A stretch of DNA of 64,000 nucleotides from an uncultured Candidatus Saccharibacteria bacterium (GCA_964479945.1 CAYZNS010000006.1:1107-65106); one strand, 5' to 3'; numbered from the stretch's first letter, positions 4,404 through 60,865 are shown. Made by a program: numbers and translations. The notes: generated by a model not told the origin, from the sequence alone.

Positions 4404-4917
4404 TTGGACAATTGATGTATATTATCCATAATATACACTCATTATGAATACGGTACATCAATTGTCCAAAATCAACAGATCTCTTGAAAGAGTAAAGGAT
4501 GCCGAGACTCGGGAACGCCTCATGCTATTGAAACGCTACTATCAATCAAGGTCATTACGGGATACCGCTCAAGAATATCGATGTAGTCATGGCAAAGTCA
4601 AATACTGGAAAGATCGGTATGAAACAGAAGGAGTACGGGGACTCTTGACACAGGAGAAATCAGGCAGACCGCCAGACGTAGACCACCGTACACTGGAAAC
4701 TATCAGACAAGCCGTGAAGCAAAAATGCAGAAAAGAACAATGGGTGGTTGAACAAGTGCGCGAGTTCATTAAGAAAAAAAGCGGTAAACAATATACCTTG
4801 CGGCACACCATACGCATAATCCAGAGTTGGGGATTTTCCATGATTACGCCACGCCCGCAGTATGCACATGCTGCATCAAAGGCACAGCAAAGGGCTTTTT
4901 TAAAAGAAGAACACTGA
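4404..4917 (+). mobile_element. IS630/Tc1-family insertion-sequence remnant: 16-bp inverted repeat pair bracketing the start codon, plus the transposase N-terminal HTH ORF (4444-4917); DDE domain absent
   Basis: TTGGACAATTGATGTA at 4404-4419 has its perfect reverse complement at 4454-4469. ORF QEYRCSHGKVKYWKDRYETEGVRGLLTQEKSGRP resembles the IS630 transposase N-terminus. No DDE catalytic ORF follows. Confidence 0.55.
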
Positions 4918-6572: not shown

Positions 6573-6612
6573 CTGACGCAAATAAGCGGCTCAACAATTA
6601 TTCTGGCTGAGC
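6573..6612. terminator. 12-bp perfect hairpin ATAAGCGGCTCA/TGAGCCGCTTAT downstream of the tRNA-like gene
   Basis: ataagcggctcaacaattattctggctgagccgcttat seen directly. Confidence 0.4.
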
Positions 6613-6626
6613 CGCTTATGCACGAT

Positions 6627-6712
6627 GTGCACCCACTAGGAGTTGAACCTAGAACCGTCTCATTAAGAGGGAGCTGCTCTGCCTCCACCGGCTGGCGGAT
6701 GAGCTATGGGTG
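6627..6712 (-). tRNA. aberrant tRNA-like gene: perfect 7-bp acceptor stem, canonical T-arm (GGTTCAACTCC), anticodon loop CUCUUAA (CUU, Lys-like) with two stem mismatches, and a 16-nt palindromic hairpin (TCCGCC-AGCC-GGTGGA) embedded in the D-loop
   Basis: Reverse complement GCACCCATAGCTCA[TCCGCCAGCCGGTGGA]GGCAGAGCAGCTCCCTCTTAATGAGACGGTTCTAGGTTCAACTCCTAGTGGGTGCA. 86 nt fits a class-I cloverleaf only if the bracketed hairpin is an insertion. Confidence 0.35.
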
Positions 6713-6770
6713 CTTAGAAAGTGTTTACAAACTCTTCAAAAGCGAAGGTTTTGTAAACACTTTCTTAAAG
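6713..6770. repeat. Palindromic repeat family F, short copy (TTAGAAAGTGTTTACAAAC ... GTTTGTAAACACTTTCTTA)
   Basis: Same termini as the 185-bp copy at 39964-40148. Confidence 0.65.
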
Positions 6771-6833
6771 CTAATTTGGAAAAGTCAGTAGGAAAAGGTG
6801 GGTAAATATTATATACATTATCTACTCTATTCG

Positions 6834-9800
6834 CTACGCGGCAGTAGGTTCCGATGCCGGCTCGCCGCCTGCGATGCCCATCAGCTTGCGAAACGTGTTT
6901 TGCTCCATGGTTTCGTGTTTGATAAGATACTCGGCAATTTCCATAAGTTTTTCCTTGCGATCGCGCACAATTCCTTTCGCTTTCTCAAGCGCCTCTTTCA
7001 TAAAACGCGCAACTTCTGTATCCACTAAGGAAGCAATTTCTTCGGAATATTTTTTCTCGTGTCCGATTTCACGCCCCAAAAACACCAAATCGCTTTGATC
7101 GTCCCATGCGACCGGACCTACTTTTTCCGACATGCCATACCGCGTTACCAAACCGCGCGCCAAACCTGTTGCTTTGCGAATGTCGTCCGAAGAGCCGGTT
7201 GTAATCTCTCCGAATACCACCTCCTCGGCGGCGTATCCGCCCAAAGAAACTGCCAATTCATCAAGGAAAAAATCGCGCGTGTACAGGTGTCGGTCTTCCG
7301 TGGGCAATTTCATGGTATATCCGCCAGCTCTACCGCGCGATACGATAGAAATTTTGTGCACCGGATCGGCGTTCGGAAGCGATGCCGCTACCAGCGCGTG
7401 CCCCGCTTCGTGAAATGCCGTAATTTTCTTTTCCTTCTCGGAAAATACTTTGCTTTTGCGCTCGGGTCCCAGCATTACTTTCTCAATAGAGACCACAAGA
7501 TCTTCCTGACTTACCGTTTTGCGGTCGTGGCGCGCCGCCAGAATGGCCGCTTCGTTCACCAGGTTCGCCAAGTCGGCGCCGGAGAACCCCGGCGTGCGCT
7601 CGGCAATCTGCCGCAAGGTTACGTCTTTGCTCATCGTCTTTTTAGCGGCATGCACCTGTAAAATTTCATCGCGCTCGGCGATATCCGGCAAATTCAATAC
7701 CACTCTGCGATCAAACCTTCCGGGGCGCAACAACGCGGGGTCCAGTACATCCGGCCGGTTTGTTGCCGCCATTATAATAACTTTGTCCGATGTTTCAAAA
7801 CCGTCCATCTCGGTTAATATCTGATTTAAGGTCTGCTCGCGCTCGTCATGTCCGCCACCCAAGCCCGCGCCGCGATGCCGCCCTACGGCGTCAATTTCAT
7901 CCACGAAAATAATCGCGGGAGCCGCTTTCTTTGCCATCTTAAATAAATCCCGTACGCGGCTGTTATGAAGCAACATCGGCTTTTCTCCGCCAAAAAACGC
8001 TTCATTTTCGCAACCAACCAGATCATACACATAATCGTTATATGGTTTTTTTGTAACTTTTTGAACGATAGGCCGCTTAAACTGATTGGGGCTTCGATAT
8101 GATAATCCGCTCCAGAAATCGCTTGTTTTTCCTACAATAATATTCCATGCCTCACCTGCCGGTAATGGTTTTTTGCCCATGCTGATTATCCTTCCCGGTT
8201 TTAAAGCCATTCTCCGCACGCCGACTTGAATGCCGTGCATGTTCAAAAGCCATGTGAGCTCGCGAATCAAGCCATGGCTAACGGATGTCATGCTTAGCTT
8301 GCCATCTTTCGTAACATACCCATCGCCGTCAGAATATCCTTTTACAAATTCACACACATACTCCCACGGAAGCTCCCATATCCACTGCGGCAGATGTTTT
8401 TGGTGACTGCCCGTCCCGCATTGCGTTTCAAAAAAACGGGCAAGCGGCTCTGCATGTACCGTGATGCGCGTGCTATTTGTAGTTGTCTCTTCCACATGTA
8501 CCGGAAGATTAAAAATCTGCTTTACCAACGAAATACAGTCGTTAATCAATGCTTTTTCATGCGAACCGAAAACAAACTGTGTATAATACGCCGTTGTGCG
8601 TCCTTCTGCCATATAATAACCCAAGATACGCATCAAATCTTTGGTAACGGCAACTTGCGCCGGAAGACCCTGCGTGATACTGCGGGACGAATACACGCGT
8701 GGCTTATGCGTGCCGTCTATCCATTTGCCAACGATTGCCTGGCTCATACCCACATGCGTGCCGATTTCTTTCTGTGTCATGGTTTCGGCATGCGCCAACG
8801 CATACGCATATTTTTCATTCGCTTGCCGGTACTGTTCCTCCCAGATCGGCAATAACGGGATCTGTTCAACATCAAACTCGTGCGCTTTTACTTTGTGTGT
8901 TGTACCAAAGCCAGGCACAAACGAAGAGCGTACTTTATAGGGAAGATTTACCAATACGTCGCCTTCCTCAAGCTCATCAGCGCGTTTTGCGCGCACGTAA
9001 TTTTTTTCCCGAACAAAAATACTATGATCCCCCGTTGTGCGAACAACGCCGCCGCGGAAATAAATCTCATATATGGAATCAACTTTATGGCGGTACACGC
9101 CTGAAAACGGTGCAAATCGGGAACCGCCCATATTAAATTTATCTTCGTTATTTTTAAAACCCCAAAAGCCAGTTCCCGCGCGTCTGGCGCTTAACGTTTC
9201 TAATCCGGAAACCTTTTTTACCATGCCGCCCTCGCCTTCCTTATAAAACTTATCCGCAACTTCCCGAATGGATAGAAGCTGCACTTTGCTGTCTTCCCGA
9301 ATAAGCACCGGCGTATCACCTGTTACAGAAGCCCCCACGCCTACAAACATTTCCACGAACTCGGAGGCCGACATATGAAAAAACGGCACGCCCGCTTCAA
9401 ACGCGACCGCTTTTGCCAGCAATGTCTTCCCCGTACCCGGCGCGCCCATCAACAGCACGCCGCGCGGAATGCGCGCTCCAATATCCAAAAACTTTTGCGG
9501 ATTTTTCAAAAAGTCCACAATTTCCAAAAGCTCTTCTTTGGCTTCTTCCGCGCCTGCCACATCCTTAAATGTTACTTTCTCGCGCGGGTCGTCCGGATTG
9601 ATAACGCGCGCGCGGGATTGCCCGAACATGAGCGCCTGCCCGTTAGAGCGCTGCACCTGGCGCATGGTAAGCCATATAAAAAGGCCGATTAAAATTATAG
9701 GCAAGAGAAACGGCAGTAGCGCCGAAAGCCAGAACGCAAGGCCGGACTGTTCTTTTACTTCAATGGTTATATCGGCAAGCATCTCGGGTGTAACCCCGTA

Positions 9801-10088
9801 ATTGCTTAATGTGTCGGACAAGGCGGCGTCCGGCTCTTTCTGCGATGTCTGCACCGTACCGTTTTTGAGCACGATTTCCAATTTATTGTTTGCCGCGGAA
9901 ATACGCAGTATCTCGCCCACGCGGATTTCTTCCACCAACCGGGAAAGCGAAACTGCTTCCGGCTTGTCCCGTTCGGCAAAAGAAGCATACAGCGCCGTGA
10001 GCACCAAGAAAATTAAAATGGCATAGAGAATATTTTTACCGAATTGCCCCATGGGGTTTTTCGGCATTTTTGGTTTTTTTAGGTTCAT
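6834..10088 (-). CDS. ftsH: ATP-dependent zinc metalloprotease FtsH interrupted by an intein (extein 628 aa + intein 456 aa)
   Basis: N-terminal TM helices. Walker A GAPGTGKT. Extein junction [10 protein letters not shown]|S...HN|SRVRDLF...[16 protein letters not shown] zinc site in the C-terminal protease domain. Confidence 0.9.
7962..9329 (-). mobile_element. Intein with LAGLIDADG homing-endonuclease domain inside ftsH (aa 254-709)
   Basis: Starts SVTGDTPV (Ser1). Block B RTTGDHS. Two LAGLIDADG motifs LGYYMAEG and [11 protein letters not shown]. Ends ...LLHN followed by Ser+1. Removing it restores the canonical FtsH sequence GVGA-SRVRDLF. Confidence 0.8.
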
Positions 10089-12359: not shown

Positions 12360-12438
12360 ACACCTCCTTTTTGGTACTCAAAGATTTGCGGTGATTATAT
12401 AGCAAGATACGCGACTTGTCAATACCACTCTTCCCATT

Positions 12439-12519
12439 CCGGATGTGCCAAGCCAAGCTACCCACAATTCCGTCTATACACGGAATGTGTGAAGCTCGGC
12501 TAGTCACAATCCTGGCGCC
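12439..12519. repeat. Hairpin repeat family A copy (GGATGTGCCRAGCCRAGCT-loop-AGCTCGGCTAGTCACAATCCTGGCGC)
   Basis: Shares both arms with copies at 17395, 34932 (inverted), 53057 and the 23983-24298 composite. Confidence 0.7.
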
Positions 12520-13328
12520 TTGCCGTTTTTGTAGCTGTTCTCTTTGTTTCCATTATTGCCGAAAAACGCAATGAGCGCGTTGAGCAGTTCTTGAGATAAT
12601 GCGGTCACCTTCTCGGCCGCTATGCCATCCCGCGGATCCACCCCGGGGCAATACGGAAATACAATGCCTCCGCGCCATCCGTTTTGCTGGTCGCGAATCC
12701 GCGGCAATACCGTTTTGGTATCTATGAAACAAAATACCCCTCCGTGCCGCGGCGCAAGAACGCACCATTGGTCAACGCCGAGAGAATCAATATAACCTGT
12801 CCCGTTCTCGTACATAGCGTACCAGCCATACTTCACGACATCGCCGCGTAAGAAAAGAAGATGAAGCAAATATGTTACGAAGGCTTCTATGCGCTCCGAT
12901 AAGGCTATACGCTGCGCAACAAGAATTACAGATTTTACTTCCTCGCAAACGCTTGGCACTATAGGCAACTCAGATTCAAATCGGGTGATTTCTGTCTGCA
13001 AAAACAAACGCTTCTCTATTTTCGTTTTCTCCCAACGCCAACAATGGACTATCTTTTTTATATCCTCCGAATCATGCGGTGGCCACGGCCAGCACGGCAG
13101 TTCGATCCAATATCCTATTCCATCAAGCATTTCGGCAGTATCTGCGTTCATAAGCCAGTCCTCCAGAAAGAAATTTTTCAAAATCCAGGTTCCGTTGCTA
13201 CCATACAATACCTGTGGATAACAGACAAGTATTATTATGTAACATTTGGTATTATAGAAAGCGTATCGTCGCGCAAAAATGCGAATCCGAAAATTCCGGC
13301 ACGGCAATTCATAATAATAACAAAACAC
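12504..13328 (-). CDS. hypothetical protein (start probably internal)
   Basis: ORF only; the 3' end runs into repeat A. Confidence 0.35.
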   Translation of the reverse strand: MFCYYYELPCRNFRIRIFARRYAFYNTKCYIIILVCYPQVLYGSNGTWILKNFFLEDWLMNADTAEMLDGIGYWIELPCWPWPPHDSEDIKKIVHCWRWEKTKIEKRLFLQTEITRFESELPIVPSVCEEVKSVILVAQRIALSERIEAFVTYLLHLLFLRGDVVKYGWYAMYENGTGYIDSLGVDQWCVLAPRHGGVFCFIDTKTVLPRIRDQQNGWRGGIVFPYCPGVDPRDGIAAEKVTALSQELLNALIAFFGNNGNKENSYKNGKAPGL

Positions 13329-16300: not shown

Positions 16301-17388
16301 CGGGAATGGATAAGGAACTACTCGGTAAAAAAGATTTCGTTGACGCTGAAAATCTTAACGGAAGAATTGAGTTCCTTCTGGAAAAGATCAATACAGACCA
16401 TGTGCCAACCCGCCATGACCGCCATGTAGAACATCTGGACAAATTACTGCAATACACGCACGCAAAATTAAAAGATGGTTACATAAATTTCGGCACCAAA
16501 GACAAAAATCTGCAAAACCAATTTGAACTTCTTACAAACTTGAGTAAAGCCCAAGGATACCTTTTCATGCACCTCAATAATACAGGAGCTCAAGACAAGC
16601 AAGACAAGATGGTTGCAAAGGCTTTGGAACTTCACAAACGAAGAGTTTCCGGGGAAAAGAGAAAATATTTGGCGGTACAGTTTGGCAAAGGGGCTCTCAT
16701 AGGCGCATCATTCGCCGCAGGCGGTTGGATTACGCGCCATCTCATGGAAGAGAATGGTTTCTTCTCAAAAGCAGCAGAAGCTGCAAAGGATACCGCCGCG
16801 CCGCCCGAAAACCTGCCGCTAAAGCCGGAGATAGAACCAACACCCGTACTGCCAGCGGAAAAAGCGGCGAAAGCCCCCGCCTGGCAGCCGCTGGAAAAAC
16901 AAACGCCGCAATGGGAACCGTTGGATAATGCAGACGCGGGAACGGGCAGAAAAGGGCTGCCGGCATGGGAACCAGCGGAGAAAGCTTCGGACGCAATTTC
17001 CGCTGCGGAAAAAACAATGACGCTTTCCATTGCGGCGCGAGGGCCGGAGGGTACGCTTATTGATGAGCTTCAAAATAATGCAAAACTGGCAAAAGAATAC
17101 GGGTGGGATGGAACATCTGATATAAAAACATGGGCAGGCGGCGAAGCACACCGTATGTGGCTGGAACATGCGCATAAGGCCGTGAAAAATCCCGATGTAC
17201 TTAACCAAATGAAAAAACTTGGATATCTGAAAGGCCTTTCAAAAACACAAATGGAAGATGAAGATATTGTACTCGGCCGTTACAAAGAGATGATGCTTCG
17301 CATCAAAAAAGGGTCAACTCTTTCATTTGATCCTGCAAAAAAATTACTGGATTTTTCGAAAGTACTATTTTCAAAGGCGCCTAGATAA
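13399..17388 (+). CDS. very large (1329 aa) K/E/A-rich low-complexity, probably coiled-coil hypothetical protein
   Basis: Uninterrupted 4-kb ORF with strongly biased composition. A PRKKK start is followed by long charged repeats. Confidence 0.6.
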   Translation: MPRKKKIVSDASDALEILREAFSPYHTKKYGMPRFAELGKKPRIRLVAAKENGYAGEKDPYLENPASGAEENNNTPPASEPKATLEPLIRNVQEGTLKPEQQKKTVDKKPSGGALSLEDLKKYNEMRLERMEAIPKPPPQPSPEELKTKIEVAARGRAEMQPPAQEAKILWEKTQEEPQKQSVEQSSAPVQPDRLKIIEEQDGSFSLEDEEGNLRAGSLSKADAEKYSDPDKIQELYDKTYLEEDIERDIAQLHRRAPREQTTQDMVGKELLKRSGIKDLTAKGKGFRVDIDNKLYQHIASEEEAKRVADVIKSGKMPDLIKGEDGPYRLRNDESAAEKERVAALHKKAEDLHAQKSKLSPEDQKRLYDLTAKINAQFETQSQEGRVPATEATPIPPDADKQALEVLQEIVSEESRKKPEPPMVSHKETPVKVEAATGGQAEIKAPEMPQAVPDLGTPSLEEVEKQLSESMKTKVGAPEKAVPTGRQAPEPPLAEIPKPELKKSEAAKAKEAKNLKPEGIRLSDLPPEEQEKAKVEAAKVSFEEKTKLLLKEIDSPGGWSREKGQEVLARQLAREKGYSAEAIQKSIDELRSREKDISHRERRMVGRLGLAKKLIEEELGATTKTEEKKEETKRRPYTINETGDIELEKSEYAEVKETAVGKAFSEKFGITAEELARMEGFRDLSDGQQLLVLRNLDQLTRGRIEEEAATIYKEGTQHSKFLGRIFRGVTEGITGKEYKTLAAKKQTEEAIRTGGIALHGAHLAWLTKMAKNTPVEVKEDGSLEINYIYPDTFGPDGIQVAKAYNTAATKFSTIPLAWSWDTATNKQQKEFVKLEKQYQEAREALETLFAKDSNIKAASLFVHNLDNAVKMNQLLNANPELETALQQVDSKRTWKEFAKGVGKSLSEKGAFAGAGYVTRYATISLFGLAAAPAAAGVIKGIRSTMKGAENFREEKKLRRNSTARKEKAGMDKELLGKKDFVDAENLNGRIEFLLEKINTDHVPTRHDRHVEHLDKLLQYTHAKLKDGYINFGTKDKNLQNQFELLTNLSKAQGYLFMHLNNTGAQDKQDKMVAKALELHKRRVSGEKRKYLAVQFGKGALIGASFAAGGWITRHLMEENGFFSKAAEAAKDTAAPPENLPLKPEIEPTPVLPAEKAAKAPAWQPLEKQTPQWEPLDNADAGTGRKGLPAWEPAEKASDAISAAEKTMTLSIAARGPEGTLIDELQNNAKLAKEYGWDGTSDIKTWAGGEAHRMWLEHAHKAVKNPDVLNQMKKLGYLKGLSKTQMEDEDIVLGRYKEMMLRIKKGSTLSFDPAKKLLDFSKVLFSKAPR

Positions 17389-17394
17389 CATTTT

Positions 17395-17466
17395 CCGGAC
17401 GTGCCGAGCCGAGCTATCTCCCGGTACAACCGTGGATAGAGCTCGGCTAGTCACAATCCTGGCGCT
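17395..17466. repeat. Hairpin repeat family A copy
   Basis: ggacgtgccgagccgagctatctcccggtacaaccgtggatagagctcggctagtcacaatcctggcgc. Confidence 0.7.
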
Positions 17467-17516
17467 TGCTTGAATTTTAAACGTTCTTCGTTACACGTTT
17501 TACGTTCTACGAACTT

Positions 17517-19828: not shown

Positions 19829-22093
19829 ATGAAATCCCTTGTAATTGTAGAATCCCCCACTAAAGCCAAAACCATTTCCCGCTTCCTCGGGAAAGATTTT
19901 GTCGTGGAATCCAGCTTCGGCCACATTCGCGATCTGCCTTCGTCGTCGCTAGGCATTGACGTAGAGCATAATTTCACACCCAAATATGTTATTCCCCGTA
20001 AAGCATCGCCGAAGGTAAAAAACTTGAAAGAACTCGCGAAAAAGGCAGATCGTATTATTCTGGCAACTGACGAAGACCGGGAGGGAGAAGCCATAGCGTG
20101 GCACCTCACCCAGGCCCTTGGCCTGGGAAATTCCAATTTCCAAGAAACAATTTCCAAACGAATTACAAACAAAAACAAAAAATCAAATTCAAAACAAAAA
20201 AAAGAACACGCTCCACGCTCCACGCTCCACGCTCCACAAATCCAACGGATCGTTTTTCATGAAATTACCAAAAAAGCGATAGAGGATGCGCTTAAGCATC
20301 CGCGGGAGATTGATGCGCATCTAGTGGACGCGCAGCAAGCGCGGCGTATTTTGGACCGGCTGGTTGGCTATAAGCTCTCGCCGTTTCTCTGGAAGAAGAT
20401 AGTGCGCGGTCTCTCTGCCGGCCGCGTACAGTCAGTTGCCGTGCGGCTTATTGTAGATCGCGAACGCGAAATTGAAAAATTCAAACCACAGGAATATTGG
20501 TCGATTTCCGCACTACTGCGGAAATCGCAATTTCCAATTTCCAATCCACCAACTGGCGGACAATTTCCAAACGAATTTGAAGCACTGCTCATAAAAAAAG
20601 GCAACGAATCGCTGGATAAATTTGCCATAAAAACAAAACAGGCGGCGGATAATATTGTTGCTGATCTCACCGGCGCTTCCTACACCGTAAAATCCGTAGA
20701 GAAAAAAGCAACCCAGCGCATGCCCCCGCCTCCCTTTACCACGAGCACGCTTCAACAGGCGGCATCAGCGCGAATGGGATATTCCGCGCGCCAGACCATG
20801 GTATTAGCCCAGCAATTATATGAAGGCATTGATGTTGGCAACGGCGGCCATACCGGCTTGATAACCTATATGCGCACCGATTCGCTTAATCTATCCGCAG
20901 AATCGCTCACAGCAGCCGCAGTTTATATTACATCCGCGTGGGGTTCTTCGTACGCACTGTCCGCACCGCGCGTTTATAAAACAAAATCAAAGGGGGCGCA
21001 GGAAGCGCACGAGGCAATCCGTCCCACCGACGTTACGCGCGCGCCCGCGCGCATAAAACAATATCTTGACAATAAGCAATATAAATTATACGAACTCATA
21101 TGGCAGCGTTTTGTAGCAACGCAAATGCCACCCGCAATATTCGACAGTACAACTGTCGATATTGCGGCAAATCACAAAACACAAATCACAAATTCCAAAC
21201 AAATTCCAAATTCAAAAATCCAAAATCAAAACATAGAATACCTATTTCGCGCCACGGGGTCCGTTCTGAAGTTTGACGGATTTCTCAAAGCGTACCCCAT
21301 AAAAACGGAGGACAAATTGCTACCGGAACTTGTGGAAAAACAGGTACTTGATCTGGAGAAACTGGAGCCGCGGCAGCATTTTACCGAGCCGCCTCCACGG
21401 TATTCGGAAGCATCTCTTATTAAAGTGCTGGAAAAAAACGGCATTGGTCGGCCTTCCACCTATGCACCAACCATCGGCACCATTCAAGAACGCAATTATG
21501 TGCAAAAAAATGAGGCAAAACGCTTCCAACCGACTGAGATGGGCGTTATGGTAAACGACCTCTTGGCAGAACATTTCCCCGCTATTGTAGATGTGCAATT
21601 TACCGCGCGCATGGAAGAAGACTTGGATAAAATAGCAGAAGGAGAGCGCGCATGGGTGCCGACCATTCGGGAATTTTATGAACCGTTTGAAAAAACCTTA
21701 CTGGAAAAATACGAAACCGTTAAAAAACAAACCACAGACGAAACTACGGACGAGATATGTGAAAAGTGCGGCAAGCCGATGGTAATAAAACACGGGCGCT
21801 TCGGTAAATTTATTGCCTGTTCCGGTTTCCCGGAGTGCCGCAACACGAAACGTTCGTCCGAATCCTCCCCAGCCATTGGCATACCCTGCCCCAAATGCGG
21901 CGCGGAAATTATCCAAAAAAGAACGAAACGCGGTAAATTTTTCTTCGGCTGCAGCGCCTATCCCACATGCGATTTTGCTTTGTGGGATAAACCCACCGGG
22001 GAGAAATGTCCGAAATGCGGCTTGTTGATGGTAGAGAAAGGGAAGAAAGTTGTTTGTTCTGATAAGGAATGTGCTAGGGTATTAGAGCATTAG
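19829..22093 (+). CDS. topA: DNA topoisomerase I with three C-terminal C4 zinc ribbons and three in-frame low-complexity insertions
   Basis: Toprim IVESPTKAKTI. Active-site region LITYMRTDS. Zinc ribbons CEKCGKP...CSGFPEC, CPKCGAE...CSAYPTC and CPKCGLL...CSDKEC. Confidence 0.9.
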   Translation: MKSLVIVESPTKAKTISRFLGKDFVVESSFGHIRDLPSSSLGIDVEHNFTPKYVIPRKASPKVKNLKELAKKADRIILATDEDREGEAIAWHLTQALGLGNSNFQETISKRITNKNKKSNSKQKKEHAPRSTLHAPQIQRIVFHEITKKAIEDALKHPREIDAHLVDAQQARRILDRLVGYKLSPFLWKKIVRGLSAGRVQSVAVRLIVDREREIEKFKPQEYWSISALLRKSQFPISNPPTGGQFPNEFEALLIKKGNESLDKFAIKTKQAADNIVADLTGASYTVKSVEKKATQRMPPPPFTTSTLQQAASARMGYSARQTMVLAQQLYEGIDVGNGGHTGLITYMRTDSLNLSAESLTAAAVYITSAWGSSYALSAPRVYKTKSKGAQEAHEAIRPTDVTRAPARIKQYLDNKQYKLYELIWQRFVATQMPPAIFDSTTVDIAANHKTQITNSKQIPNSKIQNQNIEYLFRATGSVLKFDGFLKAYPIKTEDKLLPELVEKQVLDLEKLEPRQHFTEPPPRYSEASLIKVLEKNGIGRPSTYAPTIGTIQERNYVQKNEAKRFQPTEMGVMVNDLLAEHFPAIVDVQFTARMEEDLDKIAEGERAWVPTIREFYEPFEKTLLEKYETVKKQTTDETTDEICEKCGKPMVIKHGRFGKFIACSGFPECRNTKRSSESSPAIGIPCPKCGAEIIQKRTKRGKFFFGCSAYPTCDFALWDKPTGEKCPKCGLLMVEKGKKVVCSDKECARVLEH
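20128..20240 (+). repeat. In-frame insertion 1 in topA (AATTTCCAA / CAAAAA motifs, then CACGCTC x4)
   Basis: Encodes GLGNSNFQETISKRITNKNKKSNSKQKKEHAPRSTLHAPQ, between conserved AWHL and RIVFHEITK blocks. Confidence 0.55.
20521..20577 (+). repeat. In-frame insertion 2 in topA carrying CAATTTCCAATTTCCAATCCACCAACTGGCGGACAATTTCCAAAC
   Basis: Near-identical to tsaD segment 60317-60366. Confidence 0.6.
21168..21236 (+). repeat. In-frame insertion 3 in topA (AAATCACAAA / AATTCCAAA / CAAAATCAAAA motifs)
   Basis: Encodes NHKTQITNSKQIPNSKIQNQN. Confidence 0.5.
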
Positions 22094-22254: not shown

Positions 22255-23982
22255 ATGGATTGGAAACAATTTAACCAAATACTAACAGACCTCGGCTATT
22301 CCGAGAGTGATCGCGAATTCATATCGCAGGCTTTTTCTTTCGCCCGGAATGCTCATGAAGGACAGAAGCGCGCATCCGGCGAGCCGTATTTTACCCATTT
22401 AGCAAACGTCGGCGCATATATAGCGGAGATGAAGCTGGACGCGCATACGATAGCGGCCGCCCTTTTGCATGACGTACTGGAAGACTGCGCCGTGCCGCAG
22501 GAAGAGCTCGCGCGCCGTTTTGGAGAAGATACGGCATTTCTTGTTGAGGGTGCCACAAAACTTGGCACCGTGCGGTACCGCGGCATACAGCGCAAAGTTG
22601 AGTCGCTGCGCAAAATGTTTCTTGCAGTGGCCCAAGACGTGCGTGTAGTCCTTATCAAACTTGCCGACCGCCTGCACAATATGCAGACAATCCAATATCT
22701 TCCGCCGAAAAAACAACAACGCATCGCAACTGAAACGCTGGAGATCTATGCGCCTATTGCGTACCGCCTCGGCATGGGCGGCATGAAAGGCGCGTTGGAA
22801 GACCTCGCGTTTCCTGTTACGAATCCGGACGAATACGCATGGGTATGCCGCGAAGTGAAACACCGTGTACCGGAAGGCGAACAGTATCTCCGAGAAGAGG
22901 TAAAACCAGCGCTGGAAGAATTCCTGCATGCGGACGGCATACACCCTATTGCCATTGATTTTCGTAAAAAACATCTCTATAGCTTATGGCAGAAACTGCT
23001 TCGGTACAATATGGACTTCGGCCGCATTACGGATCTCCTTGCCATGCGCGTTATTGTAGATACTGTTGAGGATTGTTATCAGACGCTTGGCATCATTCAT
23101 CAACTCTGGAAGCCGCTTCCCGGCCGCATCAAGGATTACATAGCGCTTCCAAAACACAATGGCTACCGAAGCCTGCACACCACCGTGTTCTGCGGTGAAA
23201 ATAAAATAACGGAGTTCCAGATACGAACGCAGGAGATGCACGACGAAGCGGAGCGCGGCGTTGCCGCGCACTGGATGTACACGGAAACCGGCAAGCCGAA
23301 ACGAGGAGCGGCCGTGGAGCGGCAAACTGCATGGATACAAAAACTCTCCGCATGGCAGCAGGAGGTGGGCGCGGCTGAAGACGATGATGAATTTTTAGAA
23401 TCCTTAAAGATAGATTTCTTCAAAGACCGCATTTTCGTCTTGACGCCGAAAGGAGAAGTAATAGACCTCCCTGCTGGGGCAACGCCCGTTGATTTTGCGT
23501 ATGCAATACACTCAGAAATTGGGGACCATATGATGGGGGCCAAGGTAAACGGCAAACTCTCACCCTTTGACCGCGAGCTCGCCTCCGGCGAAACAATAGA
23601 AATTCTCACGCAAAAAAATAAAAAACCGAACGCCGAGTGGCTTTCGTTCATAAAAACGTCGCTCGCCCGCAACCGCATACGTGCCGCCGTCCGTAAAGAG
23701 CCAGAGGGCGCTTCTTCAGGCGCCACCCGCAAAAAGCAGCATCAGCAATATCAATGCGTCATTACCGGCCGCGACCGCGTGGGCTTGCTCAAAGATATAT
23801 CCGCGATATTTTCCGAATTCCGCATTAACATTCAGCACATCGCCATGAATACGAAGAATAAACAGCAATATCCGGATATCGTCATATCGTTTCAGGCACG
23901 CGATGAGCGGCAAGTGCACAGCGTCGCCACGCGCCTCAAAGGTGTCCCTGATATTGAAGAAATTGCAATGAAACGGGTGTAG
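22255..23982 (+). CDS. rel: RelA/SpoT-family (p)ppGpp synthetase/hydrolase (HD + synthetase + TGS + ACT domains)
   Basis: HD motif LLHDVLED. Synthetase core RVIVDTVEDCY...KDYIALPKHNGYRSLHTTV. TGS block IFVLTPKGEVIDLPAGATPVDFAY. C-terminal ACT-like region. Confidence 0.85.
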   Translation: MDWKQFNQILTDLGYSESDREFISQAFSFARNAHEGQKRASGEPYFTHLANVGAYIAEMKLDAHTIAAALLHDVLEDCAVPQEELARRFGEDTAFLVEGATKLGTVRYRGIQRKVESLRKMFLAVAQDVRVVLIKLADRLHNMQTIQYLPPKKQQRIATETLEIYAPIAYRLGMGGMKGALEDLAFPVTNPDEYAWVCREVKHRVPEGEQYLREEVKPALEEFLHADGIHPIAIDFRKKHLYSLWQKLLRYNMDFGRITDLLAMRVIVDTVEDCYQTLGIIHQLWKPLPGRIKDYIALPKHNGYRSLHTTVFCGENKITEFQIRTQEMHDEAERGVAAHWMYTETGKPKRGAAVERQTAWIQKLSAWQQEVGAAEDDDEFLESLKIDFFKDRIFVLTPKGEVIDLPAGATPVDFAYAIHSEIGDHMMGAKVNGKLSPFDRELASGETIEILTQKNKKPNAEWLSFIKTSLARNRIRAAVRKEPEGASSGATRKKQHQQYQCVITGRDRVGLLKDISAIFSEFRINIQHIAMNTKNKQQYPDIVISFQARDERQVHSVATRLKGVPDIEEIAMKRV

Positions 23983-24298
23983 GTGACTAGCCGAGCTCTA
24001 TCCCGGTGCAACCGCGGATGGATATGGATATCTCATCCAGAAAACGCATCATGTCATTCCCGCGTAGGCGGGAATCCAGTTGTCCGCCCGAGGCGGATCA
24101 GCATCCGGATGAAAAAACATATATACCTTCAATGGTAATGGATCCCGCATCAAGTGCGGGATGACAAATTATGTCGCATGTGGTGCGGATTCATAATGTT
24201 TTATCTATAGCCGGGCTCAGCACCGGAAATGCTTACCGGTGCCGTATTCCGGAATGTGCCGAACCCCGGTGGAACCTGAATTAGTCACAACCTTGCAC
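23983..24298. repeat. Composite ~315-bp copy of repeat family A with internal hairpins (ATTCCCGCGTAGGCGGGAAT, CCCGCATCAAGTGCGGG)
   Basis: Left end is GTGACTAGCCGAGCTCT, the inverted family-A arm. Right end has CCGGAATGTGCCGAACC ... TAGTCACAACC. Confidence 0.6.
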
Positions 24299-34882: not shown

Positions 34883-34931
34883 AAGAGTAATCGCGAATAA
34901 TGCGAATTAAGGCGAATATACGAATAGAATA

Positions 34932-35005
34932 TGGCGAACAAGCGCCAGGATGTGACTAGCCGAGCTCTGCACATGAGCGAAGCGAGATGTAAATAGCTCG
35001 GCTCG
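34932..35005. repeat. Hairpin repeat family A copy (inverted orientation)
   Basis: gatgtgactagccgagct...agctcggctcggcacatccgg. Confidence 0.7.
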
Positions 35006-37143: not shown

Positions 37144-37896
37144 CTACCCCTTGCTGTCATGCGCCTCCACGCGGAGCGTTACCATATAATCAGCGCCATC
37201 CAATTCTGGACCTGATTTCGGATGAGGACTTACTTCCAGAAGAGTTATAATATAGCTTCCTGTTACTGCGGCATTCGGTATGCCACTGTCGCCCGGGAGG
37301 CGCAACCGCAACTCCTCGCCGCCCGCCTTGATATGCACGGTAACCCAACCTGCCTGTATGCATTGCACATCCTGCGGACAACGGCTATCATCTTCCACAC
37401 CTGTGAACGCAATTTTCAAATCCTCCACCCATTTGACTTCCCCGAATGCGAGCGTAAATGTATTTCCTTCTTCCGCGCTTACCCGTTCCCGACGTTCAAC
37501 ATCCAATACAAACGGCGTGTTGTTGATCGTCGCGGACAATACCGCATTATTCGCAGCGTCAAACGATACGCGGAACGGCGCCTCAAAAATAACCTGCGCG
37601 CAGATATCGGCGGTTTGCTCGGCAGTAAAGCGCAATACAACTTCTTCCGGGCTGCCCCCATGATTCTCGGCCGACACGGAAAGCGTATAGCACGGGTTAG
37701 GAAGCGTCACGGTCCCCTCCACGGTATGCATGCCGTTACCCGCGTAATCCACGCCGGTAGCTTTCTCCGCAAGCGGCTGCGCGCTTGCTTCCTCTTCACT
37801 CCGCCAGCCGGCGGAGCGGAACATAAGCCACGCGCCGAGGCCAAGCAACACTATGATAAGTATTCCCCAGATTGTTTTTTTGGTTGTCATATTCAT
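37144..37896 (-). CDS. hypothetical membrane-anchored protein
   Basis: N-terminal TM IWGILIIVLLGLGAWLMF. Confidence 0.5.
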   Translation of the reverse strand: MNMTTKKTIWGILIIVLLGLGAWLMFRSAGWRSEEEASAQPLAEKATGVDYAGNGMHTVEGTVTLPNPCYTLSVSAENHGGSPEEVVLRFTAEQTADICAQVIFEAPFRVSFDAANNAVLSATINNTPFVLDVERRERVSAEEGNTFTLAFGEVKWVEDLKIAFTGVEDDSRCPQDVQCIQAGWVTVHIKAGGEELRLRLPGDSGIPNAAVTGSYIITLLEVSPHPKSGPELDGADYMVTLRVEAHDSKG

Positions 37897-39963: not shown

Positions 39964-40148
39964 CCTTTAGAAAGTGTTTACAAACCCTTCGTAGCGAAGC
40001 TTTCCTGCTTTGAGCTGATACAAGGAAGGCAAGTAAAACGGCATAAGGCGTAGCAACGCTACGGTGAAATGCTGTTTTACGCAGCCTGACGCCGTAGCAG
40101 CCAAAGCAGGAAAGCTGCAGTAGAAGGGGTTTGTAAACACTTTCTTAT
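39964..40148. repeat. Palindromic repeat family F, long copy (nested inverted repeats, ~185-nt hairpin)
   Basis: Termini TTAGAAAGTGTTTACAAAC/GTTTGTAAACACTTTCTTA. Inner palindrome CGAAGCTTTCCTGCTTTG/CAAAGCAGGAAAGCTG. Confidence 0.65.
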
Positions 40149-47807: not shown

Positions 47808-47905
47808 AGAACTCCCACCAAAATCTTCGCCTCACAAATTGTTCAAAGCTTAGCTTTGAACAATCGAAAACTTTGGTAGGAGTCCGATTATAGTAATCGG
47901 ACACA
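47808..47905. repeat. Repeat family G copy (CTCCCACCAAAATCTTC ... TGTTCAAAGC-TTA-GCTTTGAACA ... GAAAACTTTGGTAGGAGTCCGATT)
   Basis: Shares both ends and a central palindrome with 49738-49838. A partial copy sits at ~47100-47125. Confidence 0.65.
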
Positions 47906-49737: not shown

Positions 49738-49838
49738 AAAGAACTCCCGCCAAAACTCTCGATATGCATTGTTCGAAACTCGGTTTCGAACAATCGAAAA
49801 CTTTGGTAGGAGTCCGATTCTTGGGTTGAATCGGACTG
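49738..49838. repeat. Repeat family G copy containing perfect palindrome TGTTCGAAAC-TCG-GTTTCGAACA
   Basis: aactcccgccaaaactctc...ttgttcgaaactcggtttcgaacaatcgaaaactttggtaggagtccgatt. Confidence 0.65.
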
Positions 49839-52943: not shown

Positions 52944-53056
52944 AAACGTTTTACTATTATATATATGCTTTACATTTTATCAAGAAGTAAAATAATGTCA
53001 AGAGCGGTATTTGTAAGAGCTCACAAACTCGGATAATTGTGTAACATTTGCTATCT

Positions 53057-53128
53057 CGGATGTGCCAAGCCGAGCTCCACATCGCCCTACGGGCGTGTGT
53101 AGAGCTCGGCTAGTCACAATCCTGGCGC
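53057..53128. repeat. Hairpin repeat family A copy
   Basis: cggatgtgccaagccgagct...agagctcggctagtcacaatcctggcgc. Confidence 0.7.
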
Positions 53129-53207
53129 TTACTCAAGTTTGTGAGTTCTTACCGGTACTTTCTTGAAAATTATAAGGGGAGGCGATTGCTCGTCTCCCCT
53201 TTTTTCT

Positions 53208-59530: not shown

Positions 59531-60865
59531 ATGATAATTACCGCAATAGAAACATCGTGCGATGAGACGGCAATTGCCGTTATTCAAACCGCCGGCGGAG
59601 GACGCGGCTTTCGCGTACTCTCCAATTTGGTGCTTTCGCAAGCTAATCTTCATGCCGAATGGGGCGGCGTGGTACCGAATTTGGCTAAACGAGAACACGA
59701 AAAAGCTTTGGTACCCATGCTTTTACAGGCATTGGACGAAACAGGGCTTTTTGAATCAAGAATCATGAATTATGAATCAAGGAAAAAAAACAAAACCCAT
59801 AATTCAAAATTCATAATTCATAATTCAATTCTAGAAAAGAATGAAGAACTTAGAAAATCTTTTGAAGCGCATATTACAAGCATCTCGCGCCCAAACATAG
59901 ATATAATCGCCGTAACGCAGGGGCCGGGGCTGGAACCGGCATTATGGGTAGGCGTTAATTTCGCGCGGGCGCTCTCGGCGCTGTGGAATATTCCGTTGTT
60001 AGGTGTAAACCATATGGAAGGACACATCGTCTCGGCGAGAATCGCCGAGACGGACGCAAAACGTAAAACGCAAAACGTAAAACTACAACTCAAAACTCAA
60101 AAACCTAAAACCTATCACCTAAAACCTATCACCTGCCCCGCGCTTGCATTGCTGGTCAGTGGTGGTCACACGGAATTGGTACTTATGAAAAAGCCGCTGC
60201 ACTATGAAATTATCGGCGAAACGCGGGATGACGCGGCAGGCGAAGCGTTTGATAAGGTGGCACGGCTTCTCGGCCTTCCCTATCCTGGAGGACCCGCCAT
60301 AGCTCAGCAAGCTGATCTATGGAATTTCCAATTTCCAATCCGCCAGCTGGCGGACAATTTCCAAACAAATTCCAAAATCAAAAATCAAAATTCCAAACAA
60401 AAATTACGAGTTACGGATTACGAGTTACGGATTACGCTCCCTAGGCCGATGATAAACACAAAAGACTTTGACTTTTCGTTTTCCGGCTTAAAGACTGCCG
60501 TTCTTTATCTCATACGAGACTTAGAAAAATGCGGTGAAAACATCAAAAAACTTCGTCCTGCCATCTGCAAAGAATTTCAAGATGCCGTGGTAGATGTGCT
60601 TGTTGCAAAAACCATCCGCGCGGCAAAGGAATATAAGGCAAAAACGATTCTTCTTGGCGGCGGCGTCGCCGCAAATAAGGAACTCCGCAAGCGCCTTGCG
60701 GAAGAAATTAAAACTCAGCTACCACGTTCTACGTTCCACGTTCCACGTTCTACTCTTACGGGTGACAACGCGCTCATGATAGCCGTCGCGGCAATGGAAC
60801 GCGCAAAACAAGCAAAAAAAACAACATGGAAAACGCTCAAACCGGACGCAAATATGCGATTTTGA
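59531..60865 (+). CDS. tsaD: tRNA N6-adenosine threonylcarbamoyltransferase TsaD (Kae1/YgjD) with four in-frame low-complexity insertions (~100 extra aa)
   Basis: MIITAIETSCDETAIAV. GVNHMEGHI metal site. LVSGGHTEL. GGGVAANKELR. Confidence 0.9.
   Translation: MIITAIETSCDETAIAVIQTAGGGRGFRVLSNLVLSQANLHAEWGGVVPNLAKREHEKALVPMLLQALDETGLFESRIMNYESRKKNKTHNSKFIIHNSILEKNEELRKSFEAHITSISRPNIDIIAVTQGPGLEPALWVGVNFARALSALWNIPLLGVNHMEGHIVSARIAETDAKRKTQNVKLQLKTQKPKTYHLKPITCPALALLVSGGHTELVLMKKPLHYEIIGETRDDAAGEAFDKVARLLGLPYPGGPAIAQQADLWNFQFPIRQLADNFQTNSKIKNQNSKQKLRVTDYELRITLPRPMINTKDFDFSFSGLKTAVLYLIRDLEKCGENIKKLRPAICKEFQDAVVDVLVAKTIRAAKEYKAKTILLGGGVAANKELRKRLAEEIKTQLPRSTFHVPRSTLTGDNALMIAVAAMERAKQAKKTTWKTLKPDANMRF
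59752..59832 (+). repeat. In-frame insertion 1 in tsaD: palindromic GAATTATGAA/TTCATAATTC element (family I)
   Basis: Encodes ESRIMNYESRKKNKTHNSKFIIHNSIL. Confidence 0.55.
60052..60134 (+). repeat. In-frame insertion 2 in tsaD (AAAACGTAAAACG / CTCAAAACTCAAAA / CCTATCACCTAAAA tandem motifs)
   Basis: Encodes DAKRKTQNVKLQLKTQKPKTYHLKPIT, right after conserved HMEGHIVSARIAE. Confidence 0.55.
60322..60440 (+). repeat. In-frame insertion 3 in tsaD: CAATTTCCAATCCGCCAGCTGGCGGACAATTTCCAAAC + CAAAATCAAAA + (TTACGAGTTACGGA)x2
   Basis: Encodes NFQFPIRQLADNFQTNSKIKNQNSKQKLRVTDYELRITL. Contains perfect palindrome CCGCCAGCTGGCGG. Confidence 0.6.
60721..60755 (+). repeat. In-frame insertion 4 in tsaD: (CCACGTTCTACGTT) tandem motif
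   Basis: Encodes PRSTFHVPRSTL. A similar ACGTTCTTCGTTACACGTTTTACGTTCTACG lies intergenic at 17480-17515. Confidence 0.5.

Follow-up and report, generated by a model that had tools for sequence, protein, structure and literature searches.

We analysed a transfer RNA (tRNA) gene in a 64,000-nucleotide stretch of DNA from an uncultured groundwater bacterium (GCA_964479945.1, CAYZNS010000006.1:1107-65106; hereafter the window) and found that it is a tRNA-Lys(CUU) gene whose D-loop carries an inserted 16-nucleotide (nt) GC-rich quasi-palindrome. The 16-mer belongs to a family of palindromes dispersed through the window, and close relatives of the host carry an exact, inverted copy in the D-loop of a decayed tRNA-Ile(UAU) gene. 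The window gene is one instance of a recurrent association of ultra-short GC palindromes with tRNA D-loops in bacteria of the candidate phyla radiation (CPR). The original prediction had placed the gene at 6627-6712, one base away from its actual position. The features of the locus are:

6628-6713, minus strand: tRNA-Lys(CUU) gene, 86 nt, with a 21-nt expanded D-loop and no encoded CCA; found by Rfam RF00005 and by ARAGORN on the hairpin-deleted sequence.
6684-6699, minus strand: 16-nt GC-rich quasi-palindrome TCCGCCAGCCGGTGGA, a 6-base-pair (bp) stem with one G.U pair and an AGCC loop, replacing D-loop positions 15-17.
6665-6667, minus strand: anticodon CUU; its loop, CUCUUAA, has both U33 and A37.
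6662, minus strand: U39, a G39-to-U change relative to CPR-type tRNA-Lys genes, by which pairing between 31 and 39 is lost and the anticodon stem is reduced to three Watson-Crick pairs.

The sequence of the tRNA, read on the minus strand from 6713 to 6628, is GCACCCA UA GCUC A UCCGCCAGCCGGUGGA GGCA GAGC A GCUCC CUCUUAA UGAGA CGGUU CUAGG UUCAACU CCUAG UGGGUGC A, in which UCCGCCAGCCGGUGGA is UCCGCC AGCC GGUGGA. The predicted perfect acceptor stem (7 bp), canonical T-arm (a 5-bp stem with a UUCAACU loop), 5-nt variable loop and length of 86 nt were all seen in the sequence, together with a 4-bp D stem, and U8, A14, G18G19, A21, U33, the T-loop and A73 were all retained. The Rfam RF00005 covariance model aligned with the gene over its full length (model positions 1-71) and gave a score of 46.4 bits (gathering score, 29); it placed a 19-base insertion in the D-loop and marked two pairs of the anticodon stem as non-canonical. 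The four ordinary tRNAs of the window scored 59 to 68 bits with the Rfam tRNA model and were all called by ARAGORN, the only standard tRNA finder that was run. The comparison of tRNA calling with and without the hairpin, which had been proposed as a check, showed that ARAGORN made no call on the native 86-nt gene and called tRNA-Lys(ctt) every time on four in-silico variants from which the 16-nt hairpin, or 12 to 14 nt of it, had been removed. The covariance model could have returned another tRNA type or another fold, and it returned tRNA-Lys(CUU) in the predicted fold. The predicted anticodon loop CUCUUAA (CUU) was confirmed by the sequence, Rfam and ARAGORN; the gene also has the discriminator A73 of a tRNA-Lys(CUU), and its D stem and anticodon arm match those of CPR tRNA-Lys genes. 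Since the same sequence is present in two independent Joint Genome Institute (JGI) metagenome assemblies (L001 and L002), the tRNA and its hairpin are not an assembly artefact.

The D-loop, at 21 nt, is outside the length range of ordinary tRNAs (about 7-11 nt). Its order is A14, directly followed by the 16-mer and then by G18, G19, C20 and A21, so that the module sits in place of nucleotides 15 to 17. In relatives these three positions are AAU or AUU, and A15 pairs with U48; in the window gene this 15-48 (Levitt) pair is lost and U48 is without a partner. The hairpin predicted in the D-loop (TCCGCC-AGCC-GGTGGA, 6 bp and 4 nt) was found at 6684-6699 and was kept in the predicted fold; alone, it folds at -9.1 kcal/mol. 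The minimum-free-energy fold of the whole gene (-35.7 kcal/mol, z = -3.1) contains the helices of the acceptor, D and T stems and that of the extra hairpin. Because the module replaces positions 15 to 17, the transcript would keep U8, A14, G18G19, A21 and the T-loop and would adopt a normal cloverleaf from whose D-loop an additional 6-bp hairpin projects. A tRNA-Sec-like D-arm of 6 bp and 4 nt was considered and rejected, as a normal 4-bp D stem flanks the hairpin, a long variable arm is absent and the anticodon is CUU.

We then searched the window for further copies of the palindrome. With up to two mismatches, TCCGCCAGCNGGTGGA gave 6 strand-matches at four loci, the query copy included, when 0.11 were expected, and none of 100 shuffled sequences reached that number. 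The loose form of the hairpin was found at five sites in the window, as compared with about one site per 190 kb in ~0.96 Mb of unrelated loci. The other copies are:

60339-60354, plus strand: perfect palindrome TCCGCCAGCTGGCGGA in tsaD, read I-R-Q-L-A-D, core of a 49-nt AT-rich in-frame element at 60323-60371.
20545-20560, plus strand: TCCACCAACTGGCGGA in topA, read N-P-P-T-G-G, core of a second 49-nt element at 20529-20577.
37800-37815, plus strand: bare copy TCCGCCAGCCGGCGGA in the open reading frame (ORF) 37144-37896 (minus strand), read S-A-G-W-R-S, right behind an N-terminal hydrophobic segment.
24083-24097, no strand assigned: looser relative TCCGCCCGAGGCGGA in a convergent intergenic region, which may simply be a terminator hairpin.

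The copies start with TCCG and end with CGGA, and four of the five lie within genes. Compared with the 16-mer of the tRNA gene, the tsaD and topA copies are each identical at 14 of 16 positions and the 37800 copy at 15. The ORF 37144-37896 matched no Pfam family. The three coding copies are read in three different codon phases, the palindrome being stop-free in every frame, and the conserved unit is therefore DNA or RNA and not peptide; a peptide motif S-A-S/G-W-R was rejected for this reason. The 49-nt AT-rich element (family D9) is 94% identical between tsaD and topA, and a third copy of this type, at 20127-20162 in topA, has GAAA in place of the palindrome core. The tRNA and 37800 copies are bare cores, and the 49-nt AT-rich element is not in the tRNA. 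The prediction that the same small element as in tsaD and topA had entered the tRNA gene is thus borne out by the 14/16 identity, the three codon phases and the inverted exact 16-mer in a tRNA D-loop of relatives, with sharing limited to the 16-nt core. Comparison of the flanks of six copies showed no common target-site duplication and no common motif, and in tRNAs the module replaces two or three nucleotides instead of being a clean addition.

Both tsaD (59531-60865) and topA (19829-22093) also contain further low-complexity in-frame insertions made of the AT-rich units AATTTCCAA, AAAATCAAAA, TTACGAGTTACGG and CACGCTCCACGCTCC. Alignment of relatives, done for tsaD, showed that the loop regions bearing AT-rich insertions are hypervariable in length and sequence.

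Homologues of the C-terminal part of the FtsH encoded upstream of the tRNA gene were found in metagenomes at 86-91% identity, one of them named 'Parcubacteria group bacterium Gr01-1014_70', with Ryanbacteria next at about 80%. The closest TsaD proteins were those of Gr01-1014_29 and Gr01-1014_70, in agreement with FtsH, and from these best relatives we conclude that the host is a Parcubacteria (CPR/Patescibacteria) bacterium. Five ftsH relatives have a convergent tRNA-Ile(UAU) gene downstream of ftsH, behind the conserved promoter-like sequence CAATAGAAACRTGATATAAT. In L139, L144, L145 and L147 this tRNA-Ile(UAU) is intact, with the D-loop AATGGCA or similar and without the 16-mer. In L137 and L138, whose FtsH is 91% identical to that of the window, the gene has the orthologous start (shared upstream sequence, GCGGTACATAGCTCA) followed by the exact 16-mer, placed between TAGCTCA and GG, then by GGTAGAAC and a degenerate anticodon region, CTTATAA. 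The same orthologous site is thus filled in two relatives and empty in four. Another intact tRNA-Ile(UAU) lies 19 nt beyond the L137/L138 fragment, with the acceptor stem GCGCGTG instead of the CGGTCCG or CGGCCTG of the orthologs, and the sole difference between L137 and L138 in this region falls within the decayed fragment. Written on the tRNA-sense strand, the window copy is TCCGCCAGCCGGTGGA and the L137/L138 copy is TCCACCGGCTGGCGGA, so that the 16-mer is flipped between the two genes; as RNA, the flipped hairpin has an A.C mismatch and folds at -5.6 kcal/mol, as compared with the G.U pair and -9.1 kcal/mol of the window copy. The tRNA fragments that carry palindromes, in these relatives and in the contig described below, are:

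L137, 3255-3335, and L138, 2044-2124, minus strand: decayed 5' half of tRNA-Ile(UAU) with the exact 16-mer in the D-loop; no 3' half.
L133, 2707-2965: two 5' fragments of tRNA-Lys(CUU), acceptor GCGCTGT, with D-loop palindromes of 15 nt and 45 nt.

Simple arithmetic gives an expectation of about 3e-5 for an exact 16/16 match in the roughly 60 kb of relatives' DNA. This low expectation, the 14 to 16 identities out of 16 with the loop included, the enrichment far above shuffles and the identical sequence in independent assemblies make it hardly credible that the GC-rich hairpin originated at the site itself or through mis-assembly and has nothing to do with the other palindromes, even though generic TCCGCC...GGCGGA hairpins are also seen as terminator-like structures (at 24083 of the window and in L018).

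A metagenome scan for CPR-type tRNA-Lys genes with a long D-loop, in a collection outside which the window's own JGI contigs fall, gave nine loci. Eight of these are normal tRNA-Lys genes with a 5' partial duplicate, and the informative one is L133, an unrelated CPR contig. The D-loop of its first fragment reads GTT-TCCGCCAGAGGCGGA, and its other fragment carries, after G19, the 45-nt GC palindrome CCCGCCTCGACTCG...CGAGGCGGG, of a family written CCCGCCTCG...CGAGGCGGG. Both fragments lie directly upstream of a normal tRNA-Lys(CUU) gene (73 bits), which differs from them in its acceptor stem, where a Lys-Arg-His-Arg tRNA cluster begins. The palindrome-bearing tRNA copies of L137/L138 and of L133 are alike in being truncated and degenerate and in standing each beside an intact isoacceptor.

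This arrangement is what would be expected if the palindromes were recombination sites, that is, junctions at which incoming tRNA segments or cassettes replace resident tRNA genes and leave 5' fragments ending near the D-loop. The difference between the acceptor of the intact isoacceptor and those of the fragment and the orthologs (GCGCGTG vs CGGTCCG/CGGCCTG) and the many genomes in which an intact gene is closely preceded by a 5' tRNA-Lys fragment that stops in the D-loop are in line with this, and palindromes of 16 bp resemble recombinase core sites. However, the tRNA halves that flank the palindrome in the window pair at 7 of 7 acceptor positions, so that no chimera is evident; the same palindromes are found in tsaD, topA and another ORF without apparent gene replacement, and no recombinase gene is adjacent. 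We consider this explanation quite improbable, and the 7/7 pairing of the acceptor halves led us to reject a chimera in which the window gene and the tRNA-Ile of the relatives had recombined at the palindrome.

The tsaD gene of Gr01-1014_70 (L149) has an AT-rich element at the same site as the window gene, but its core is CCAGCCTCGACTCGTCCCGAGTCGGGCGAGGCGGG, a 35-nt palindrome related to the 45-nt palindrome of L133. The tsaD site is thus occupied by the 16-mer in the window and by a 35-nt palindrome in L149, and further relatives have other sequence there or none. Since the 16-mer and the 45-nt family are shared out among tRNAs and tsaD, both GC-palindrome families occur in D-loops and at the centre of the in-frame AT-rich element, and the simplest reading of these sequences would be that they are small, interchangeable, mobile GC-rich hairpin modules. 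Judging from their distribution, the palindromes behave like mobile DNA: they are found in either orientation, are present or absent at orthologous sites, occupy all three codon phases in essential genes and are repeated in D-loops.

We also scanned a genome collection for tRNA-Lys genes with long D-loops and obtained at least 120 matches; among the matches listed, the genome of the window is absent, and most are either D-loop introns of archaea or bacterial tRNA-Lys genes that are normal but preceded by a stray TAGCTCA. A scan of viral contigs for a D-arm with a palindrome gave no match. Full-length tRNA-Lys-like genes with a 26-32-nt D-loop hairpin after G19/U20 and the motif CGAAAGCGAAGCTTTTG were observed in L031 (a Draconibacterium metagenome-assembled genome), L061 (Parabacteroides sp. 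PH5-46) and L108; ARAGORN made no call on them, and no other tRNA lies within the 2.6-8 kb locus of each. These three may form a separate conserved class of D-loop-expanded tRNA-like genes. A 5' tRNA-Lys fragment ending in or just past the D-loop, 0-15 nt upstream of an intact tRNA-Lys gene, was seen in unrelated bacteria (L004, L018, L057, L081, L093, L104, L106, L116, L131, L136 and others) with a search pattern that selected for such cases; in L004 and L018 a CCCCGTAYAAWT-like sequence lies behind the fragment.

The archaeal D-loop introns found in the genome scan bear on the possibility that the 16 nt are an intron or intervening sequence removed from the transcript, either by archaeal bulge-helix-bulge splicing or by an RNase III-type excision that leaves a split tRNA. 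Archaeal tRNA-Lys D-loop introns of 15-35 nt are common (dozens among the matches listed), and CPR bacteria are known for insertions in their rRNA genes. However, the host is a bacterium, and the fold offers no bulge-helix-bulge: the junctions lie in a 1-nt/4-nt internal loop beside a 6-bp helix with a 4-nt loop. A 6-bp stem is too short for RNase III, and the 16-mer is inverted in another tRNA and in frame in proteins, unlike an intron. Removal of the 16 nt from the transcript is thus very improbable.

The original prediction had also pointed to two closing mismatches in the anticodon arm. Both are present, but only C31.U39 is peculiar to the window gene. The anticodon arms of other CPR tRNA-Lys genes consist of GCTCC, GTTCC or GATCC, a CTCTTAA or CTTTTAA loop, and GGAGA, GGAAA or GGATA; the arm of L004 is GCTCC CTCTTAA GGAGA, and that of the window gene matches this CPR type. 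The G27.A43 mismatch is shared by the CPR-type tRNA-Lys genes of L004, L018 and L046 and is therefore normal for the lineage. In the C31.U39 mismatch, U replaces the G39 of the others (L004, L018, L046 and L128-L136). Against a standard of a 5-bp stem, the anticodon arm of the window gene has a 7-nt loop with U33 and a stem of three Watson-Crick pairs with G27.A43 and C31.U39. Folded in isolation, it takes a wrong register in which CUC32-34 pairs with GAG40-42 (-2.4 kcal/mol), whereas the G39 variant takes the canonical fold (-4.1 kcal/mol). A suppressor or frameshift tRNA with an effective 9-nt loop (CCUCUUAAU) was rejected, as the loop is widened by a stem mismatch with no base inserted, and U33 and the CUU register are standard.

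The 16-mer would have reached the tRNA gene by DNA insertion, through a mechanism that was presumably trans-acting and probably hairpin-dependent, and the insertion-bearing transcript would form a cloverleaf with an extra arm. Because the 15-48 pair is lost and G39U leaves three Watson-Crick pairs in the anticodon stem, the tRNA-Lys(CUU) may be crippled or decaying toward a pseudogene, a reading that we favour with about even confidence. AAG codons would presumably fall to a tRNA-Lys(UUU), a tRNA that can in principle read them, with its gene in another part of the genome. Several points weigh against decay. Decay should leave damage scattered over the gene, yet this one has its full length, perfect acceptor, D and T stems and every universal tertiary nucleotide save that at position 15. 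D-loop positions 15-17 are the most permissive segment of a tRNA, and recurrence there could reflect tolerance, not lethality. No intact tRNA-Lys gene is found nearby in the window, the window gene may be the only tRNA-Lys(CUU), and AAG makes up 29% of the Lys codons in 16 long ORFs. As regards mobility, no target-site duplication, common flanking motif or candidate transposase or nuclease was found for the 16-nt element.

An alternative is that the palindrome was inserted and the tRNA-Lys(CUU) still works, with the hairpin predicted to project from the solvent-exposed positions 15-17 and to leave the L-shape undisturbed, so that D-loop insertions would survive because they are tolerated. The intact acceptor, D and T stems and the retained nucleotides (U8, A14, G18G19, A21, U33, the T-loop and A73) fit a working tRNA, as do an Rfam score far above threshold and a minimum-free-energy fold that is essentially a cloverleaf plus hairpin. 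The orientation with the G.U pair gives a stable hairpin (-9.1 kcal/mol), while the flipped copy in the dead L137 gene is A.C-mismatched (-5.6 kcal/mol); one D-loop position was hit in three organisms, as if selection filtered insertions, and the genes of L031, L061 and L108 are full-length despite longer D-loop hairpins. However, G39U reduces the anticodon stem to 3 bp and the arm misfolds when folded alone, the Levitt-pair partner of U48 is gone, and all the other palindrome-bearing tRNA copies found are dead fragments. The 21-nt D-loop also adjoins the elbow region, which in tRNAs is contacted by RNase P and the ribosome. Taken together, continued function is possible but doubtful.

Recurrence in the D-loop could reflect either target preference or survivorship. 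A broader proposal is that CPR bacteria hold ultra-short (15-45 nt) GC-rich hairpin modules, with no element-encoded enzyme and with a real target preference for D-loops and for the centre of the in-frame AT-rich element in essential proteins, and that these modules drive the death and replacement of tRNA genes or create bacterial tRNAs that are functional with a hairpin-expanded D-loop; we regard this as rather unlikely.

The tRNA gene is flanked upstream by ftsH (6834-10088), which an intein interrupts, and downstream by a rhomboid protease gene. The FtsH protein (minus strand, 1084 amino acids) contains the intein, with a LAGLIDADG-type region, at its GVGAS|RVRDLF motif; the intein is absent from the FtsH of the closest relatives (612-629 amino acids; 86-91% identical outside the intein). 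The best non-self homologues of the rhomboid protease are about 60% identical, and in none of the homologues does a tRNA or ftsH gene adjoin. A TATAAT box at 6808-6813 is the only one visible. A scan for consensus promoters and terminators around the tRNA gene called nothing, the hairpin at 6584-6616 included. The other structured elements are:

6716-6765, no strand assigned: 50-nt palindrome whose 16-nt arms, AGAAAGTGTTTACAAA, match perfectly; it stops 2 nt short of the tRNA 5' end and is a shortened form of the 39969-40145 element.
39969-40145, no strand assigned: 177-nt highly structured, MITE-like (miniature inverted-repeat transposable element) palindromic element, with the 16-22-nt terminal inverted repeats of the 50-nt palindrome; no Rfam match.
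6584-6616, minus strand: GC-rich hairpin AAGCGGCTCA...TGAGCCGCTT followed by ATTT, terminator-like in sequence and fold, downstream of the tRNA gene.

As the 50-nt palindrome has the arms of the 177-nt element, internal shortening of palindromic elements evidently occurs in this genome. An intergenic repeat containing GAGCTCGGCTAGTCACAATCCTGGCGC (families D3, D6 and D17; no Rfam match) was seen at 12431-12530, 17387-17477 and 53048-53140, and in reverse complement at 23962-23999 and 34931-34968. A 52-nt sequence is present twice, at 47838-47889 and 49768-49819, with 88% identity; it begins with a 27-nt palindrome, ATTGTTCAAAGC...GCTTTGAACAAT, behind which comes CGAAAACTTTGGTAGGAGTCCGATT. The ORF 4444-4917 (plus strand, 157 amino acids) has HTH_33, HTH_28 and HTH_32 domains only, with no catalytic domain following; we take this combination of helix-turn-helix domains to resemble the N-terminus of IS630-family transposases and the ORF to be a remnant.

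It is known that small palindromic repeats can spread into intergenic DNA and, in rare cases, into proteins. For a 16-nt module that lands repeatedly at one D-loop spot across tRNA genes and organisms, no counterpart was found in the literature searched, and a search for D-loop insertions in CPR tRNAs returned nothing relevant. The window gene offers a concrete case of extra structure tolerated by a bacterial tRNA D-loop and a route into tRNA-gene turnover in reduced CPR genomes, and it ties a tRNA insertion and the in-frame tsaD and topA insertions into one phenomenon. As ARAGORN misses the hairpin-bearing gene, CPR tRNA inventories, and the missing isoacceptors and altered codes deduced from them, may be biased.

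The palindromes are small mobile palindromic repeats by kind, with dispersed near-identical copies above chance, presence and absence at a site and both orientations, and they belong to no named family. Archaeal non-canonical tRNA D-loop introns, which as a class depend on a bulge-helix-bulge (PMC3978253), likewise add 15-40 nt to the D-loop of an otherwise normal tRNA-Lys; here, however, a bulge-helix-bulge motif is lacking, the host is a bacterium, and what is inserted is a dispersed repeat with further copies in proteins and in inverted orientation. MITEs have terminal inverted repeats bounding 50-500 bp and a target duplication; the 16-mer is too short and shows no duplication, while its 50-nt and 177-nt neighbours share 16-22-nt terminal inverted repeats. 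Repetitive extragenic palindromes and bacterial interspersed mosaic elements (REP/BIME) lie outside genes, are tagged at one end with GTAG or CGTC and are mobilised by REP-associated tyrosine transposases (RAYT) (PMC3733652). REPs resemble the present palindromes in being 20-40-bp GC-rich imperfect palindromes in many copies and both orientations, but the latter start with TCCG and sit inside genes, and no RAYT gene is in the window. The repetitive hairpin elements of sponge mitochondria, which invade rns, rnl and nad5 (PMC2800124), are also short repeated hairpins that invade a compact genome, structural RNA and protein genes included; they differ in being organellar, mostly intergenic beside tRNA genes, and in having helices of at least 10 bp.

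The Rickettsia palindromic elements (RPEs; PMC1779305) are 100-150 bp in length and, like the palindromes of the window, are dispersed both between genes and in frame in proteins of a small-genome, host-dependent bacterium, the host proteins tolerating them. They are longer than the 16-nt core and 49-nt composite found here, share no sequence relationship with them, and the passages of PMC1779305 that were read mention none in a tRNA gene. The palindromic GC clusters of yeast mitochondria (GC42, GC18 and others; PMC4478555) are 18-48 nt in length, lie sporadically in AT-rich surroundings, merge and shuffle, and may sit in var1/rps3. They are organellar where the present host is a CPR bacterium, the module described here is shorter (15-16 nt) and has no AG/ACT-type target duplication, and recurrence in tRNA D-loops is not reported in the passages of PMC4478555 that were read. 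Nevertheless, their behaviour is the closest to that of the palindromes described here: both are short GC-rich hairpins in AT-rich DNA, sporadic at homologous sites and present inside a protein gene, with no transposase of their own known, and the variable GC core within the conserved AT-rich element of tsaD looks, by analogy, like the product of the same merger and shuffling.

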